Part shown: positions 56,010 through 64,000 of the stretch, in pieces
Layout: each line of letters begins with the position of its first letter
Position numbering within the stretch: the stretch's first letter is position 1
Source: Polyangiaceae bacterium
Lineage (GTDB): Bacteria > Myxococcota_A > Polyangia > Polyangiales > Polyangiaceae
DNA: 64,000 nt
Direction of reading: 5' to 3'
Assembly: GCA_050287085.1 (NCBI GenBank)
Contig: JBNKBE010000009.1
Span: forward strand, 131,734-195,733
The notes under the pieces: generated by a model
Told to the model about the DNA's origin: nothing
Databases searched by the model: none
The model's input: the letters and a program-made list of their open reading frames with translations, nothing else
Program-made: the position numbers and the translations under genes

Positions 56010-58880
56010 ATGTTTTCGACCCTCTCGACCTCCCCGCCGCACTGGTTTCTATGGCCCGTTGCGCTGATCCTTGGAGCGCTGCTCGCCGGCGACGGGGCTT
56101 ATGCCGCCGGCGCGCTGTCGGGCGCCTGTGTGCTGTGGCTTTGGCGCTTGAACACCCACTTGTCGTCCCTGCGAAGAGCAGGTGAAGACCTGGAAGTCGA
56201 ACTGGCGGACGCGCGCAGCCGCATCACGTTGCTAGAAGCGCGCCTTTCGGCATCCGGCGCGCCCCTGGAGGCGTCGGATGCGCGCCACGCGAAGCAACCC
56301 GCGGCTGAAGCCCAGTCCGAGACTTTCACCGCCCCGACGGACACGGCGCCGCAATTCGCGGAGGAAGCTCCGGCCGGCGCCTTGGAGGCTCAGGCGGCGC
56401 TCAGTCCGAACCCGATCTCCGCCGCTGCTGACACAAGCGCCGCGCCGACGGACGCAGGTGAATGGCATCGACCGCAGACACCGCCAGAGCCACTAGTCCA
56501 ATGGTTCCAGCCCCTGCGTGAGTTCTTGTGGGGTGGCAATACGCTCGTAAGAGTTGGCGTCTTGGTCCTGCTGGTGGGCGTAGTCTTGCTGCTGAAGTGG
56601 GCCGCCGACAACAACCTCTTTCCGATCGAGCTGCGGATGCTCTCAGCCGCAGCAACCGCCGCTCTGCTGATCGGGTTCGGCTATCGCACGCGCACCCGAC
56701 GCAAAGAATACGGAGTAACGCTCCAGGGCGCTGGCGTCGCAGCTCTCTACTTGGTCGTCTTCTTCTCGTTCAAATCCTACGAGCTGTTACCCGGCCTTGC
56801 CGCCTTCACCTTGTTGGCTGGCATCAGCCTATTCAGCTGCCTGCTCGCTACGCTGCAGAATAGCAGGACACTGATTCTGCTTGGTGCACTGGGCGGATTC
56901 GTCGCGCCCATTCTCGCCTCGACTGGAGCGGGAAGTCACGTTGCGCTCTTCAGCTGGTACCTAGTCCTCAATTTAATGGTGCTGGCCATCTCGGTCGTCA
57001 AGAATTGGCGCTCGGTCGCGCTGGTTGGGTTCGCGTTCACTTTCGGCATCGGCACGGCATGGGGTGTGTTGCGCTACGAGCCAAGGCACCTGGCCAGCAC
57101 TGAGCCATTCCTACTGCTATTTGCGGCAATCTACGCCGCGCTTCCTGTGTTGATGCAAACCTGGCAACTACGCCATCCTGGTCAAACAGAAGCGGGCGTC
57201 AAGACCGTCCGAGGCATCGACAGCACGCTCACGTTTGGTACCCCGCTGGCTTTCCTGGGTCTCCAAGCCGGTCTCTTGCGCGAACACCCCATGGCCATGG
57301 CCCTCACGCTCGCGAGCGTAGCGCTCGCCTACGTCGGGGCCGCCATCTGGTTACATCGCCGTTCGCACGAAGCATTCGCGTCCGCCATAGCCAGCTTCCT
57401 GACGGTAGGCGTCGGCCTTGGTACGCTCGCCCTTCCCTACGCATTGCGAAGCCACAACCTGACCAGCGCGGGGTGGGCCTTGGAAGGCGCGGGCATGTTC
57501 TGGGTTGGTGTCCGCCAAGGCCGACGACGGCCGCAGCTCTTTGGTGTTCTACTGCAAGTGGCCGCGAGCGTAGCCCTAAGCGCCGGCCTGCTGGGTATCA
57601 GTCTTCCGCTCTTGGACACGGATTTCTACAACTCCCAGATCAGCGACTTCGTTCTAACCACATCGTTGGTCGGCATCACCAGCTACTTCACTGCCTTCTA
57701 CTCACACCGACACCAGGTCAGCGGCAGTTGGGCCATACAGGTGTTGCTGTTTTGGGGGCTGTTGCTCTGGCTCTTTGTCGGTGTTGTTACCGCTGACGAG
57801 TGGATGCCCTCGGACATCGCCCTGGCCGGAGCCTTCGCGTTCACCGCAGCCACTTGCCTACTGCTCGAAACGGTCAGCAAGGCGCTCAGGTACACACTCG
57901 GCCGCCTGCCTGCGCTACTGGCGTTCGGGCTATCCCTGATTGCAATACTCATTCATCTAGTCGCTGACGATGAACCCCCGGGTGCACCGTTGTGGCTCGT
58001 TGCATGGATCTTGTTGCTGGCAACTCAAGCGCTAAGCCTTCGCGACTTCATCGCACACCGCATCCCGTCCCGACCACGCCTTGGCGTACTGCTGGTCATC
58101 CCTCTGCTATGCACGGGATGGTGGCTCGCCCTCGAAGCCGCCGACCTTTGCCGCGTCTCGCTAGAGTTGGACGACACCTGGGTGTTCGCGGCGACAACCG
58201 CCGCCTTGAGCGCCCATGCGCTACTCGTATTGAAACTGAGGAACGCTCACTGGCTAGGAACTCTTCGCGACGCTTGGCATAGCGTAGGCATGCCAAGCGT
58301 CGCCGCGGCCATGCTCTTCATCGGGCTCATCACCGATCTAGAGTGCACGGGGGATCCGGCGCCTTTGCCTTTTGTTCCGTTGCTCAATCCGTACGACTCG
58401 TTGCGACTCATTTCGCTCGCAGTGGGACTACTCCTCTTCCGCGCAAGCTACCGAGGCGCAACCACCAAGGCCCCAATTCGGATGTGGGCAGCCATCTCCG
58501 TTCTCGCTTTTGTCTGGTTCAACTCGATGCTGGCGCGTAGCGTCCACCATCTGGCGTCCGTGCCGTTTTCGTCTGAAGCTCTGTGGAGTTCTTCCAGTCT
58601 GCAGTGGGTGCTGAGCGGTGCCTGGACAGCTGTCGCCGTCGCGCTGATGACGTGGTCGAGCAAGCGTGCGCTACGCGGCGTGTGGATCGCGGGTGCCATC
58701 CTCATGGGCACCACCGTGCTCAAGCTGTTCCTCGTTGACTTGGACCGCCAGAGCACGGTCGCCCGCATCCTCACGTTTCTTGCCGTGGGCGGCGCCCTCT
58801 TGGTTGTTGGCTACCTATCGCCCCTCCCTCCCAAACGCCCAAGTCCGACCCCCGAAACCGCGAAGGAAGCCGACGCATGA
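56010..58880 (+). CDS. DUF2339 family polytopic membrane protein
   Basis: GGNTLVRVG, LQGAG, GGFVAPILASTG, LKLFLVDL...ARILTF. Confidence 0.88.
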   Translation: MFSTLSTSPPHWFLWPVALILGALLAGDGAYAAGALSGACVLWLWRLNTHLSSLRRAGEDLEVELADARSRITLLEARLSASGAPLEASDARHAKQPAAEAQSETFTAPTDTAPQFAEEAPAGALEAQAALSPNPISAAADTSAAPTDAGEWHRPQTPPEPLVQWFQPLREFLWGGNTLVRVGVLVLLVGVVLLLKWAADNNLFPIELRMLSAAATAALLIGFGYRTRTRRKEYGVTLQGAGVAALYLVVFFSFKSYELLPGLAAFTLLAGISLFSCLLATLQNSRTLILLGALGGFVAPILASTGAGSHVALFSWYLVLNLMVLAISVVKNWRSVALVGFAFTFGIGTAWGVLRYEPRHLASTEPFLLLFAAIYAALPVLMQTWQLRHPGQTEAGVKTVRGIDSTLTFGTPLAFLGLQAGLLREHPMAMALTLASVALAYVGAAIWLHRRSHEAFASAIASFLTVGVGLGTLALPYALRSHNLTSAGWALEGAGMFWVGVRQGRRRPQLFGVLLQVAASVALSAGLLGISLPLLDTDFYNSQISDFVLTTSLVGITSYFTAFYSHRHQVSGSWAIQVLLFWGLLLWLFVGVVTADEWMPSDIALAGAFAFTAATCLLLETVSKALRYTLGRLPALLAFGLSLIAILIHLVADDEPPGAPLWLVAWILLLATQALSLRDFIAHRIPSRPRLGVLLVIPLLCTGWWLALEAADLCRVSLELDDTWVFAATTAALSAHALLVLKLRNAHWLGTLRDAWHSVGMPSVAAAMLFIGLITDLECTGDPAPLPFVPLLNPYDSLRLISLAVGLLLFRASYRGATTKAPIRMWAAISVLAFVWFNSMLARSVHHLASVPFSSEALWSSSSLQWVLSGAWTAVAVALMTWSSKRALRGVWIAGAILMGTTVLKLFLVDLDRQSTVARILTFLAVGGALLVVGYLSPLPPKRPSPTPETAKEADA

Positions 58881-60310
58881 GGTTGTTGCTGAAGTCGCCT
58901 AGCTCCCGCGCGTCCTTCCTCGCGGCGACGCTGGTGCTCCTGGCTCCCGCCCCGCCAGTTCATGCTACGCCTGAGCCGGCTCTCACAGCTCAGGACTTCG
59001 CCTACGGCCGAAGCATTGAGCTGGAACAAGAAGGCGGCCTGCAGCACCTTCGCCTACCGTTAGAAGTGCTGGCAGCGCTGAGCCCCGCGCGTACTGAACT
59101 CCGCGTCTATAACGAAGAGCATAAGCTCGTTCCATATGCCTTGCGTGTGCTCGAAAACCCCGCACCTCGAGAGGTGGCCCACGCGGTGCTGCCTTTCTTT
59201 CCGGTGCGTACCACAAGCCCTGCGCCAAAGCTCGACTCGCGCCTCCTCACTTACCGCGGGCCCGACGGTACCCTGCTGAACGTGGAACTCGCCGGCGACC
59301 GCGCTGGCGACGCGACCAGCACTCCGCCGGAAGTCGCCTTCTACCTTCTAGACACAAGTCGCCTCACTGCGCCCGTGGCCCACCTGAGGTTCGAACTGTC
59401 CGCAGAGGCAACCACTTTCGTCTGGCCGATCACGCTGGAAGAGTCCAACGACCTTTCGACGTTCAGCCCGTTAACACGCGGTACATTGGCCCGCCTCAGG
59501 CACGGCAGAGAACAGATCGACGCGCTTGAACTTCCCCTGCCTCCGACGCGAGCCAAGTACTTGCGAATGAGCTGGAACGGTTCACCTCCAGCCGCCCTTC
59601 GCGAAGCCCATGCCCTCTTGGCGCCGCCGCGAGCTCCAGCTCCGACGCTGACCACCACCATCCCTGGTACGCTCTCGGCCGCTGACGGATACGTAGACTT
59701 CGACGCGCCCGCGAGCCTTACTACCCGCACGCTGCAGCTGCGCTTGCCGGTTGAAAACACGTTCGTCAAAGGCAAGCTGCTGGGCAAAAATGCGCCAGAA
59801 GATGAATATGTAGTGCTGGCGGCGGGGGTCTTCTACCGCTTGAAACAAGAGGGCGCCGACTTCACCTCGTCGCCGATAGCGCTCCGCCCACAGCGCGCTC
59901 TTCGCTACTTTCGTTTCGAGGTAGAATCCGAGGCTGGACGCGCGGCCCTCGATCCCGCTCCGTCCCTAGCCGTCTCCGCGGCAGTGGAGCAACTGCTCTT
60001 CGTGCCGCGAGGCAGCGGTCCCTTCCAACTTGCATACGGGCGCCATTCCGCCCCTCGAGCAAGTCTGAGCGCCAACGAGCTCACGCTCACGACTGGACCT
60101 GAAGGCATCGCCAGCGACGCCCCCGACACGGCAAAGCTCGGGCCGCGTCACGAGCTCGCAGGCGATGCCGCACTGCAGCCCCCTAGGCACTTTCCAACTC
60201 TCAAGATCGCCCTATGGAGCGCCCTCGTCGGCGCGCTCGCTTTGCTTGCCGCAATTACCTGGCACCTATGGAAGACGGTCAATTCTACTGACGTCAATCC
60301 AAAGACGTGA
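58877..60310 (+). CDS. DUF3999 family exported protein with C-terminal TM
   Basis: Signal peptide, QDFAY, LRVYN...VPYAL, LLFVPRGSGPFQLAYG; ATGA overlap with DUF2339. Confidence 0.8.
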   Translation: MRLLLKSPSSRASFLAATLVLLAPAPPVHATPEPALTAQDFAYGRSIELEQEGGLQHLRLPLEVLAALSPARTELRVYNEEHKLVPYALRVLENPAPREVAHAVLPFFPVRTTSPAPKLDSRLLTYRGPDGTLLNVELAGDRAGDATSTPPEVAFYLLDTSRLTAPVAHLRFELSAEATTFVWPITLEESNDLSTFSPLTRGTLARLRHGREQIDALELPLPPTRAKYLRMSWNGSPPAALREAHALLAPPRAPAPTLTTTIPGTLSAADGYVDFDAPASLTTRTLQLRLPVENTFVKGKLLGKNAPEDEYVVLAAGVFYRLKQEGADFTSSPIALRPQRALRYFRFEVESEAGRAALDPAPSLAVSAAVEQLLFVPRGSGPFQLAYGRHSAPRASLSANELTLTTGPEGIASDAPDTAKLGPRHELAGDAALQPPRHFPTLKIALWSALVGALALLAAITWHLWKTVNSTDVNPKT

Positions 60311-60360
60311 GGGCGCGAGCCCGCATGACTGGCCCAAGCGCGGGCCCTGAAGATCGGTTC

Positions 60361-62166
<1,806 letters not shown>

Positions 62167-62345
62167 AATGGCTCCAGATTTGGGTCTGCGCGCTTAGCGC
62201 ATTTTCACGGCAGACGAGAGCAGAGCTGGCCGCGGCGACAGTCGACCGGCTGACCTGGCCAGGGCTTCAGCCAGCGTAGCTGCAACGCAGAGGGCCCCGA
62301 ACCATTGCCTGACCCATTCGAGCCCAACGCCCGCTGGCGCCCAGC

Positions 62346-62374
62346 TTGACGCTCGCCCCCAGCCCCGTCATGCT
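62346..62374 (+). promoter_or_regulatory. Candidate sigma70 promoter of the argD leader; predicted +1 at the uORF ATG
   Basis: TTGACG(62346-51)-N17-CATGCT(62369-74)-N6-ATG(62381). Confidence 0.65.
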
Positions 62375-62380
62375 CTGGCC

Positions 62381-62542
62381 ATGACCCGATCGACCGACAT
62401 GCACGCCGTCGCCGCTCCCGAGCAGGCGCCGAACGCATGGGTTCCGGGGCTCGCTGTGAATGCTCAGATCTCGGCACGAGCCGCACGTCTTGCCGCGCGA
62501 CGCGCGCGGCAAGCGGCCCGAGCTGTGTTTGCTGTGTTCTAA
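62381..62542 (+). CDS. Putative Arg-rich leader peptide (53 aa) of argD
   Basis: MTRSTDMHAVAAPEQAPNAWVPGLAVNAQISARAARLAARRARQAARAVFAVF*; 6 Arg in 15 codons (62477-62521). Confidence 0.55.
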   Translation: MTRSTDMHAVAAPEQAPNAWVPGLAVNAQISARAARLAARRARQAARAVFAVF

Positions 62543-62637
62543 ACCAGTAGACCCACCAACGACAGGCCGCCCCTTTTCGGAGCGGCCTCGCCGGGCTCAT
62601 GTCGACCTGGCTGTCGCTCCCAACACCGGAGAACAGC
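62470..62637 (+). promoter_or_regulatory. Putative translational attenuator (alternative hairpins, SD sequestration)
   Basis: Hand-folded stems 62489-62513, 62564-62588 and 62610-62637, plus cross-pairings; see findings. Confidence 0.55.
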
Positions 62638-62639
62638 AA

Positions 62640-63857
62640 GTGATTGACGAAGAACGATACCTCATGCCCGTGTTGTCACGGCCACCGCTTGTCATGAGTC
62701 ATGGCCACGGCTCATGGCTCGTGGACGAGACCGGCCGCCAGTACCTAGACTTCGTGCAAGGCTGGGCGGTCAACACACTCGGGCACGCCCCGCCCGAGCT
62801 GGCGCAGGTGCTAACACACCAAGCCACGCGCCTGCTCAGTGCTAGCCCCGCCTACCTGACGCGCCCGCTGCTGCAGCTGGTCGAGCGTCTATGTCAGCTC
62901 ACCGGAATGGATCGAGCCTTCATCGCCAACAGTGGCGCCGAGGCTAACGATGCCGCGATAAAACTTGCTCGGAAGTGGGCACAGAAACACCGCCCGGGAG
63001 CCTACAAGGTGATCACCACACGCGGTGGCTTCCACGGCCGAACGCTTGCATGCGTAGCCGCGAGCGGCAAGACCGGTTGGGACGAGGCCTTTCCTCCGAT
63101 GCTGGAGGGCTTCGTAAAGGTGCCATTCGGCGATGCTGGGGCGGTTGAGGCCGCGCTGGACACCGACGTATGTGCCGTGATGGTGGAGCCTATCCAAGGA
63201 GAGGCCGGTGTCATTTTGCCTCCACGAGGGTACCTGCAAGCGCTGCGACAGCTAGCCGACGCCCATGGAGTGCTGCTGATCGTGGACGAAATCCAGACCG
63301 GGATCTGTCGGACGGGACCACTGCTGCGCAGTCAAGAAGAAGGGGTCCGACCCGACATCTTGACCTTGGGCAAAGGACTAGGCGGCGGCGTCCCGGTCGC
63401 GGCGCTGCTCTGCACCGAGAGGGCCAACGCCTTCGATCAAGGTGACCACGGCGGAACCTACGCTGGAAACCCGTTCGTCGCCGTCGCAGCTTCCCGAGTC
63501 TTAGACATCGTGGGGACTACTGAGTTTCAGAGGGGGGTTGTTGGCGCGGGCCAGCGACTCGAAAGCGCGCTTCACGGCTTGTCGGAGGCTCACCCAGGTC
63601 TGATCCGAAACATTCGCGGGGCGGGTCTGCTTTGGGCTTGCGACTTGCGGGAGCCAGTAGCTCCCGAAGTGCGCGATACGGCTCTGGAGGAGGCGGCGCT
63701 GCTCATCAACGCGCCGGGCCCCCACACGCTCCGTTTCATGCCTCAGCTGCGAGTATGCGACGAAGAAGTCGACGAGTTCGCACGGCGCATGAACACCTGT
63801 CTGGCACCTTTTTCGCGCTCCTATCGCACGGGTGCCTTGGAACGAACGCGCAGGTAA
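62640..63857 (+). CDS. argD: Acetylornithine aminotransferase (class III PLP)
   Basis: YLDFVQGWAVNTLGH, NSGAEAND, FHGRT, EPIQGEAG, DEIQTG, LGKGLGGG, HGGTYAGNP; GTG start with SD GGAG. Confidence 0.92.
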   Translation: MIDEERYLMPVLSRPPLVMSHGHGSWLVDETGRQYLDFVQGWAVNTLGHAPPELAQVLTHQATRLLSASPAYLTRPLLQLVERLCQLTGMDRAFIANSGAEANDAAIKLARKWAQKHRPGAYKVITTRGGFHGRTLACVAASGKTGWDEAFPPMLEGFVKVPFGDAGAVEAALDTDVCAVMVEPIQGEAGVILPPRGYLQALRQLADAHGVLLIVDEIQTGICRTGPLLRSQEEGVRPDILTLGKGLGGGVPVAALLCTERANAFDQGDHGGTYAGNPFVAVAASRVLDIVGTTEFQRGVVGAGQRLESALHGLSEAHPGLIRNIRGAGLLWACDLREPVAPEVRDTALEEAALLINAPGPHTLRFMPQLRVCDEEVDEFARRMNTCLAPFSRSYRTGALERTRR

Positions 63858-63871
63858 GAATCTCCGGGTAG

Positions 63872-63907
63872 CGCCGCCGCTCAAGGGTTAACCTCGAGGC
63901 GGCGGCG
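63872..63907. terminator. GC-rich hairpin after argD, possible terminator
   Basis: CGCCGCCGC/GCGGCGGCG 9-bp stem; no U-tract on the plus strand. Confidence 0.45.
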
Positions 63908-64000
63908 ACGGGAAAAAGGCGTAAATCAAGAGAGAGTGAGACAAGCGGCCTCATCGACGTCCGCAACGGAGGGCTTGCGTCCGCTCTTGCGCGGTCATGG

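Follow-up and report, generated by a model that had tools for sequence, protein, structure and literature searches.

Attenuators of the trpL, hisL, leuL, thrL, pheL and ilv type combine a short open reading frame (ORF) with clustered codons for the end product, a bias towards minor codons, and a stalled ribosome that masks segment 1 of the leader and frees a 2:3 pairing (PMC1183508, PMC2836559). The trpL ORF of Sinorhizobium meliloti has in addition a leaderless start (PMC10117765). We have analyzed a window of 64,000 nucleotides (the whole stretch of DNA under study, contig JBNKBE010000009.1 of a Polyangiaceae bacterium) in which a second argD-like gene, present in the genome besides a canonical argD-argF pair, is preceded by a leader that resembles these systems in all the points mentioned, the leaderless start being predicted. 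It contains an ORF with a codon cluster and mutually exclusive 1:2, 2:3 and 3:4 pairings, with the codons placed so that a stalled ribosome would mask segment 1, although 2:3 is weak here. The differences from the classical attenuators are that the amino acid is arginine, that the 3:4 hairpin lacks the U-tract of a terminator and that a fifth segment is predicted to pass the output on to the Shine-Dalgarno sequence (SD). Arginine synthesis is a textbook case of control by a repressor, ArgR.

Mycobacterial polycysteine short ORFs (10.1101/834739) are, as is predicted for this leader, leaderless upstream ORFs (uORFs) with cognate codons, with no terminator and with a buried downstream SD. In those systems it is the Cys tract that pairs with the SD region, whereas here the Arg codons would act through a chain of 1:2, 2:3, 3:4, 4:5 and 5:SD pairings derived from a terminator attenuator. 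Arg codons of a uORF tie expression to arginine supply in Salmonella speF orf34 (SpeFL; PMC6386406) and in Staphylococcus aureus rbfL (PMC13009471). These control an ornithine decarboxylase and a biofilm regulator, neither of them arginine synthesis, the former through Rho, unfolding of the ribosome-binding site (RBS) and RNase G, the latter by ribosome occlusion that represses at low Arg. The fungal arginine attenuator peptide (AAP) of CPA1/arg-2 does control an arginine-synthesis gene from a uORF (PMC11550727), but it is eukaryotic and free arginine causes there a repressing stall that depends on a conserved peptide, while here the stall is predicted to activate and the conserved peptide of nascent-peptide arrest of the AAP or SpeFL type is not found. 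In a survey of candidate attenuators (Naville and Gautheret, 2010; PMC2965389, Tables S0 and S8) an argD aminotransferase family appears with 28 candidates, among them those of Ralstonia eutropha H16, Dechloromonas, Hahella, Methylococcus and Nitrosomonas, with the sensing system given in the tables as "?" and no leader peptide named. The family listed there covers class III aminotransferases broadly, and its genes may belong only in part to the argD clade described below.

Comparison with related loci indicates that the leader is a real, conserved regulatory element, and the explanation that we consider probable is a ribosome-read arginine attenuator acting on translation of the second argD, in which a stall on Arg codons would free the SD. 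This explanation is built on an ORF with biased codons, on helices that are conserved and covary, and on the genomes searched, in which ArgR was not found. An earlier note, made from the letters of the window, had proposed such an attenuator, and the parts that it listed (both promoter hexamers with their spacer, the ATG and its uORF of 53 amino acids, six Arg in 15 distal codons, segments 2, 3 and 4, the anti-SD segment and the SD stem) all lie where it placed them (Table 1). It was also right about the missing U-tract: a terminator scan after 3:4 found neither U-tract nor terminator at this locus. The ATG lies only 6 nucleotides (nt) past the -10 hexamer, and for this reason the mRNA is predicted to be leaderless. 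Positions 62200-62800 are matched with no difference by a Logan contig from the probable source run, X1.

Table 1. Predicted elements of the leader and the two argD genes, in coordinates of the window except for the last row
Feature	Position	Strand	Remarks
-35 hexamer TTGACG	62346..62351	+	promoter predicted
-10 hexamer CATGCT	62369..62374	+	17-nt spacer from -35; promoter predicted
Leader ORF (uORF), 53 codons	62381..62542	+	longest of 39 curated leaders, most having 22-38 codons
Arg control codons 33 CGA, 36 CGT, 40 CGA, 41 CGC, 43 CGG, 47 CGA	62477..62521	+	6 in 15 codons
Tandem Arg codons CGA-CGC	62498-62503	+	
Segment 1 GCCGC	62480..62484	+	partner segment 2; fold of 62469-62523, alignment A1
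Perfect 11-bp stem within the 1:2 hairpin	62489..62513	+	arms 62489-99/62503-13; outer GCCG/CGGC and CTCGG/CCGAG
Segment 2 AAGCGGCC	62511..62518	+	partner 1 or 3; consensus GGGCGGC is two pairs longer
Hairpin spanning the uORF stop codon	62527..62552	+	enclosed by helix 2:3; putative role
Segment 3 AGGCCGCCC	62564..62572	+	
Segment 4 GGAGCGGCCT	62579..62588	+	3:4 is a terminator-like hairpin, here with no U-tract
Inner helix GCCGGG/CCTGGC	62590..62611	+	places segment 5 next to segment 4; -26.5 kcal/mol for the fold of 62577-62622
Segment 5, anti-SD	62610..62620	+	core GTCGCTCC at 62613-20; partner 4 (ON) or SD (OFF)
Segment 6, argD SD and spacer	62628..62637	+	GGAG at 62628-31
argD-like class III aminotransferase gene, 405 amino acids	62640..63857	+	GTG start; second copy besides the canonical argD-argF pair
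Canonical argD-argF copy	G000:C9:220220		the other argD copy of the genome

We have searched 116 distinct upstream regions with a scan that takes the best promoter-like site and then an ATG or GTG within 5-13 nt, ignoring Arg content and accepting picks with a score of at least 12 and 10-60 codons. A uORF was picked at 43 of the 100 loci of the argD clade and at none of 16 other loci. An in-frame CGA/CGT-CGN pair was present in 38 of the 43 picks (phases 49/3/7), the first such pair falling at codons 6 to 40. By curation, 39 of 46 mostly myxobacterial loci (two are labelled otherwise in their records) have the leader; none was seen in L004, L005, L009, L029, L045 and L098, and L096 is cut by its contig end. 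In the 39 curated leaders Arg amounts to 18.7% of the codons against 7.7% in the ORFs of the genome, and CGA to 32% of the Arg codons against 15%, with CGA phases of 66/21/15. Tandem Arg codons, whose third positions vary among CGA, CGT and CGC, occur in 34 of the 39, when codon shuffling gives a mean of 23.5 and a maximum of 34 (2000 shuffles). The peptides (15-53 amino acids) have nothing conserved beyond the Arg pair and the Ala/Gly codons linked to structure, and that of this uORF matched no Pfam or NCBIfam family. Upstream of the uORFs of relatives a TTG-type -35 recurs at 15-19 nt from a -10, with the start codon 6-12 nt after the -10-like hexamer, and L088, L090 and L097 have the very same TTGACG...CATGCT pair. 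Five background candidate ORFs that we inspected revealed no comparable leader.

The RNA structure shows signs of selection as well. The sequences of segments 1, 3 and 5 come close to GCCGCCC, those of segments 2 and 4 to GGGCGGC. In a set of 35 leaders (near-duplicates L042, L124, L127 and L132 dropped), with the segment 4 core as anchor and 200 dinucleotide shuffles per leader, the best partner beat at least 95% of the shuffles in 18 leaders for 2:3 and in 23 for 4:5. An initial duplex test (5/35 and 1/35) had been set aside as mis-anchored, since it picked outer arms or the 4:5 hairpin and not the 3:4 core. Positions 2, 4, 5 and 6 of helix 4:5 are paired in all of the 30 leaders with a typical core; G-C has become A-U in four leaders (this copy, L001, L082 and L089) and C-G has become U-A in four. 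The A-U leaders belong to one genus, so that their change is perhaps a single event. In three leaders the A/U change runs through segments 2, 3, 4 and 5 together. A sequence-only alignment of 31 leaders gave 81% of paired cells for 2:3 and 91% for 3:4, values each reached by one of 500 shuffles, with 8 doubly changed cells in either helix, while controls with a slid register dropped to 35-65%. These comparisons indicate that helices 2:3, 3:4 and 4:5 recur with compensatory changes among related myxobacteria, where the six-segment relay (1:2, 2:3, 3:4, 4:anti-SD and SD stem) is kept together with an Arg-codon uORF that begins at the predicted +1 or close to it; the conservation of an Arg uORF and of stems that the earlier note had proposed to look for upstream of related argD genes is there. 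Its hairpin 1:2 fared less uniformly: the 11-bp stem and its extensions are present in the window, the conserved segment 1 is the GCCGC at 62480-62484, and no 11-bp stem was seen in the aligned relatives.

In this copy 2:3 has two A-C mismatches and 3:4 has one, and the 4:5 helix was matched by 6 of 200 shuffles. Positions 62465-62645 are more stable than all of 200 shuffles (z -4.3), and the GGAG of argD is predicted to be paired at 0.98 or more in the default fold. A covariance model of the leader (R1, 0.52 bits per position) finds in its own genome only this copy, and in 93 loci gave 8 hits, all upstream of clade argD genes, of which 4 are leaders of proteobacterial type from outside the training set. 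It had no hit in 140 other genomes of the order, which is no evidence of absence because the leader-bearing genome G100 was missed. Rfam covariance models gave no match at E up to 10 within 60000-64000, and none at the gathering score in six leader-bearing loci.

To follow the effect of a stall we have moved an A site along each uORF, removing the RNA up to 12 nt from the first base of the codon, and calculated at each position what it costs to open the RBS of argD. For 28 of the 35 leaders this predicted cost was smaller at Arg codons than elsewhere in the uORF, for 6 it was larger, and the lowest value on Arg was a median of 4.4 kcal/mol below the stop-codon state. Circular shifts reached the observed Arg effect in 0 of 5000 trials (z -5.8 for Arg, and likewise for CGA alone). 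The drop in predicted cost was at least 3 kcal/mol in 20 leaders, and L001, L135, L084, L087 and L123 had a sharp dip of 5-8 kcal/mol on their Arg codons.

In this copy the outcome depends on how far the transcript has grown. For a transcript that ends at 62624-27, an A site at Arg33, 40 or 41 gives a predicted probability of 0.98-0.99 for the combination 2:3 plus 4:5, compared with no more than 0.02 when there is no ribosome or its A site has reached Arg43, Arg47 or the stop; in those latter states 3:4 would form at 0.98 or more when the end lies just after segment 5. Stalls at Arg43 and Arg47 do not favour ON because the ribosome there covers segment 2. At a transcript end of 62634 the ON form would still amount to 0.54-0.75, and the test with the end just after segment 5 is passed by 18 of the 35 leaders. 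Whatever the ribosome state, an RNA that ends at 62592 has 3:4 as its equilibrium form, so that 2:3 would need to persist kinetically until segment 5 emerges. The folding predictions favour a stall on early Arg codons as the ON signal for three of them, hardly for Arg36 and not for Arg43 or Arg47, and the proposed ON pairing of 2:3 with 4:anti-SD is predicted during transcription and not at full length: in this copy the modelled ON form is a co-transcriptional intermediate only, and the full-length RNA is OFF.

The mechanism that we propose would begin with leaderless initiation at 62381. With plentiful Arg-tRNA the ribosome would run through, leaving segment 2 covered or paired with 1, 3:4 would form and segment 5 would bury the SD (OFF). 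When Arg is short, a ribosome waiting at Arg33, 40 or 41 would mask segment 1, 2:3 would form before segment 4 is made, and 4 would then capture 5, allowing a 30S subunit to load on the freed SD during RNA synthesis, before the RNA relaxes (ON). Rho or mRNA decay may amplify the OFF state. The 3:4 hairpin would be the homologue of the intrinsic terminator found in proteobacterial and some myxobacterial copies, most Polyangiaceae having instead a 3:4 with no U-tract and a relay through segment 5. In cells that have no ArgR, arginine starvation would in this way induce an additional ArgD isozyme.

The argD-like gene belongs to a distinct, PRK03715-like group. We built a quick tree of 99 proteins, from which 19 Alcaligenaceae-type loci and duplicates were omitted. 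It places every leader-bearing protein in a single clade of 82 rows (SH-aLRT 99), separate from 13 canonical Polyangiales argD and 4 Chloroflexota proteins, and the 405-amino-acid protein groups with proteobacterial members. Its nearest solved structures are acetyl- and succinylornithine transaminases. Of 250 genomes sampled from the family, 31 were found to have the clade gene. An in-frame ATG at 62460, which would give an ORF of 465 amino acids, was rejected as the argD start, as homology begins at residues 1-8 counted from 62640 and position 62628 is that of the SD. Since this ATG is inside the leader and the argD frame runs open from it, automatic annotation could absorb the attenuator into the gene. 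Elsewhere the genome carries argB, an argC-like gene, argJ, argH and two argG, and by eye no comparable leader was found up to 600 nt upstream of these genes or of the canonical argD-argF. The argG genes (G000:C16:122244-123437 and C4:281321-282556) are both above the TIGR00032 cut-off, and the C16 copy closes an unrelated-looking gene cluster.

We searched for ArgR (PF01316) and found it in none of 18 genomes of the genus, this 96.8% complete one included, and in none of 5 further leader-bearing genomes, in a search that detected it in 9 of 14 controls. Both tRNA-Arg(TCG) and tRNA-Arg(ACG) are encoded (G000:C27:3718-3792 and C11:176051-176125), CGA may have a reader of its own, and an argument from inosine wobble for the use of CGA was dropped because the first of them is present besides the second. 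A TadA-like gene of this genome scores just under its cut-off; a tRNA-Arg(GCG) call on contig C44 looks spurious.

The leader is not confined to Myxococcota. To judge from the sequences it travels with the argD clade into Alpha-, Beta- and Gammaproteobacteria and Verrucomicrobiota, there mostly with a terminator: in most proteobacterial leaders 3:4 ends in a terminator with a U-tract. In 19 non-myxobacterial leaders from these four groups we found runs of CGA-CGY-CGY, 22% Arg, 15.5% Ala and CGA phases of 23/6/6. A later set from one betaproteobacterial family (18 loci, minus one with no upstream DNA and two repeats of earlier loci) gave an Arg uORF with a terminator-like hairpin in 10 of 15 new loci, 8 by the scan and 2 by eye. 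When terminator-type leaders were folded at equilibrium the terminator was lost in 5 of 26, and two more had no terminator by pattern; antiterminators form before the terminator is transcribed. Among the myxobacteria, 28 of the 35 leaders, this copy included, have a 3:4 with no U-tract, and the seven with a U-tract after segment 4 (L016, L034, L088, L090, L097, L122 and L123) all have segment 5 as well, so that they look like intermediates between the terminator and the relay forms. We did not find the leader in the copies of Bordetella, Achromobacter, other Alcaligenaceae, Rokubacteria or Sandaracinaceae. On balance we favour, with more reserve than for the attenuator itself, a wider view: an undescribed family of arginine-sensing leaderless attenuators would accompany a single argD clade at least in Myxococcota, in three proteobacterial classes and in Verrucomicrobiota, would provide arginine feedback where ArgR is missing, would explain the orphan argD terminators of 2010, and would have been rewired in Polyangiaceae from a terminator to a six-segment SD relay; present-day intermediates would still have the U-tract as well as the relay segment.

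Three loci depart from the usual picture. L004 (= L085) is a clade argD of Polyangiaceae with no leader, nested among relatives with terminator-type leaders, likely a loss. At L149:2706-3255 (-) domains of a group II intron (RF00029, RF01998 and RF02001) lie directly upstream of a clade argD, at the place of the leader. L018 and L032, one verrucomicrobial and the other gammaproteobacterial, group together and have leaders of alternating Ala and Arg codons that lack the usual CGA-CGN pair.

A number of observations weigh against an arginine attenuator. The sequences compared are kin and the p-values of all the tests are consequently overstated; the promoter weights of the scan were set by hand after some leaders had been seen, and the partner segments were picked as best matches, which biases pairing upward. 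The promoter of this copy scores 8 out of 12, below the threshold of the strict scan. An acetylornithine transaminase-type role of the protein is predicted, the best of 69 NCBIfam models being PRK03715 acetylornithine transaminase (NF002985) with 444.9 bits, under the curated cut-off of 568, and the clade gene usually stands alone, an ArgC-like domain appearing in 1 of 30 downstream proteins scanned (many of which are probably not real genes). In 15 of the 35 leaders the predicted switch is smaller than 3 kcal/mol. In this copy the 6-bp helix 2:3 was matched by 106 of 200 shuffles, not beyond chance, and at full length it ranks last of 35 (amplitude -1.2 kcal/mol) with the SD paired in every ribosome state; a stall at Arg36 gives only 0.05 ON. 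High GC was the caveat of the earlier note: with 63% GC in the genome, the other two frames of the uORF hold 10 and 11 Arg triplets against 7 in frame, of 43 promoter-led short ORFs in the genome 8 contain 5 or more Arg within 15 codons and 2 contain 6 or more, and CGC and CGG taken together have no in-frame preference in the 39 leaders (phases 70/84/183). The GC content, the other frames and the 8 of 43 short ORFs would suit an incidental ORF, the conserved thing being an RNA structure (bound by a protein or ligand, or a relic terminator) whose GC-rich stems bring the Arg codons along. We regard this as very unlikely, as the CGA/CGT-CGN pair keeps the frame of a promoter-defined start over such varying distances, its third positions vary, and the codons at which the RBS is predicted to open are those same Arg codons. 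This copy taken alone does not exceed chance in several respects and is lifted above it by being conserved in relatives.

The uORF could also be a real ribosome sensor of something other than plain uncharged Arg-tRNA, namely alanine, slow translation of CGA-CGN, or a metabolite such as ornithine through nascent-peptide arrest. Ala is enriched 1.85-fold in the myxobacterial leaders (22.9% vs 12.4%), giving the peptides an RRAA/RAAR look, Ala codons too fall in the range of low opening cost (z -3.8), L086 and L087 keep just 3 and 2 Arg codons, and an Ala-rich uORF before whiB7 senses alanine and responds also to knock-down of argD (PMC10274678). Such a signal is nevertheless quite unlikely, given that the Ala codons (GCC GCY) largely make up segment 1 and that some copies have Thr in their place, that proteobacterial leaders retain their CGA-CGY-CGY runs with little Ala, that no further peptide motif is conserved and that the regulated gene is annotated in Arg synthesis. 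Unlikely, finally, is that the family is a true Arg attenuator of which this copy has decayed, with a weak segment 2 and argD mostly OFF, or acts indirectly, by Rho termination or mRNA decay after a block of translation. Here 2:3 and 3:4 contain mismatches, the 11-bp stem has been added, no other of the 39 uORFs is as long, and the equilibrium profile is flat. The canonical argD-argF pair would make the second argD dispensable, and Salmonella orf34 offers a precedent for action through Rho and RNase G (PMC6386406). What has been kept, on the other hand, is the promoter, the frame, the tandem CGA-CGC, the compensatory A-U pair in 4:5 and an intact argD of 405 amino acids, and the co-transcriptional fold is still predicted to switch cleanly. 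We retain the arginine attenuator acting on translation as the probable explanation.

In the literature searched (subscription journals and the supplements of other papers being outside reach) we found no Arg-codon attenuator of argD or of any other bacterial arginine-synthesis gene. A uORF before argF of E. coli, reportedly called argL, could narrow this novelty. The parts available of PMC13285730, PMC10117765, PMC10274678, PMC4997734 and PMC4833913 describe no such element, and a survey of Actinobacteria reports no conserved RNA element before arginine operons, citing T-boxes in other species (PMC1262725). The predicted version of the trp-type switch for arginine, which would work on translation by a relay to the SD, was likewise not found described in the literature searched. 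For the proteobacteria studied, ArgR has been reported to be missing from those outside Gammaproteobacteria (PMC5343134), and the leader offers a concrete candidate answer to how arginine could be sensed where ArgR is missing, as well as a candidate sensor for the argD terminators marked "?" in the 2010 survey (PMC2965389). One family would show how the gain of a further copy of the same helix segment turns an attenuator of transcription into a switch of translation, and its preference for CGA provides a test case for the idea that attenuators pick codons sensitive to starvation.

Around the leader, typA/bipA is found at 60361-62166 (-) (TIGR01394, 882.9 bits), divergent from it; relatives have different upstream genes, so the link between typA/bipA and the leader is not conserved. 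Farther upstream, a pair of genes at 56010-60310 (+) codes for DUF2339 (956 amino acids) and DUF3999 (477 amino acids) proteins with a 4-nt overlap. Just past the argD stop there is a strong GC inverted repeat (63872-63908) with an A-run behind it, which could terminate transcripts arriving from either side, and a 14-nt unit at 63985-64000 recurs as a tandem array further along contig G000:C9.

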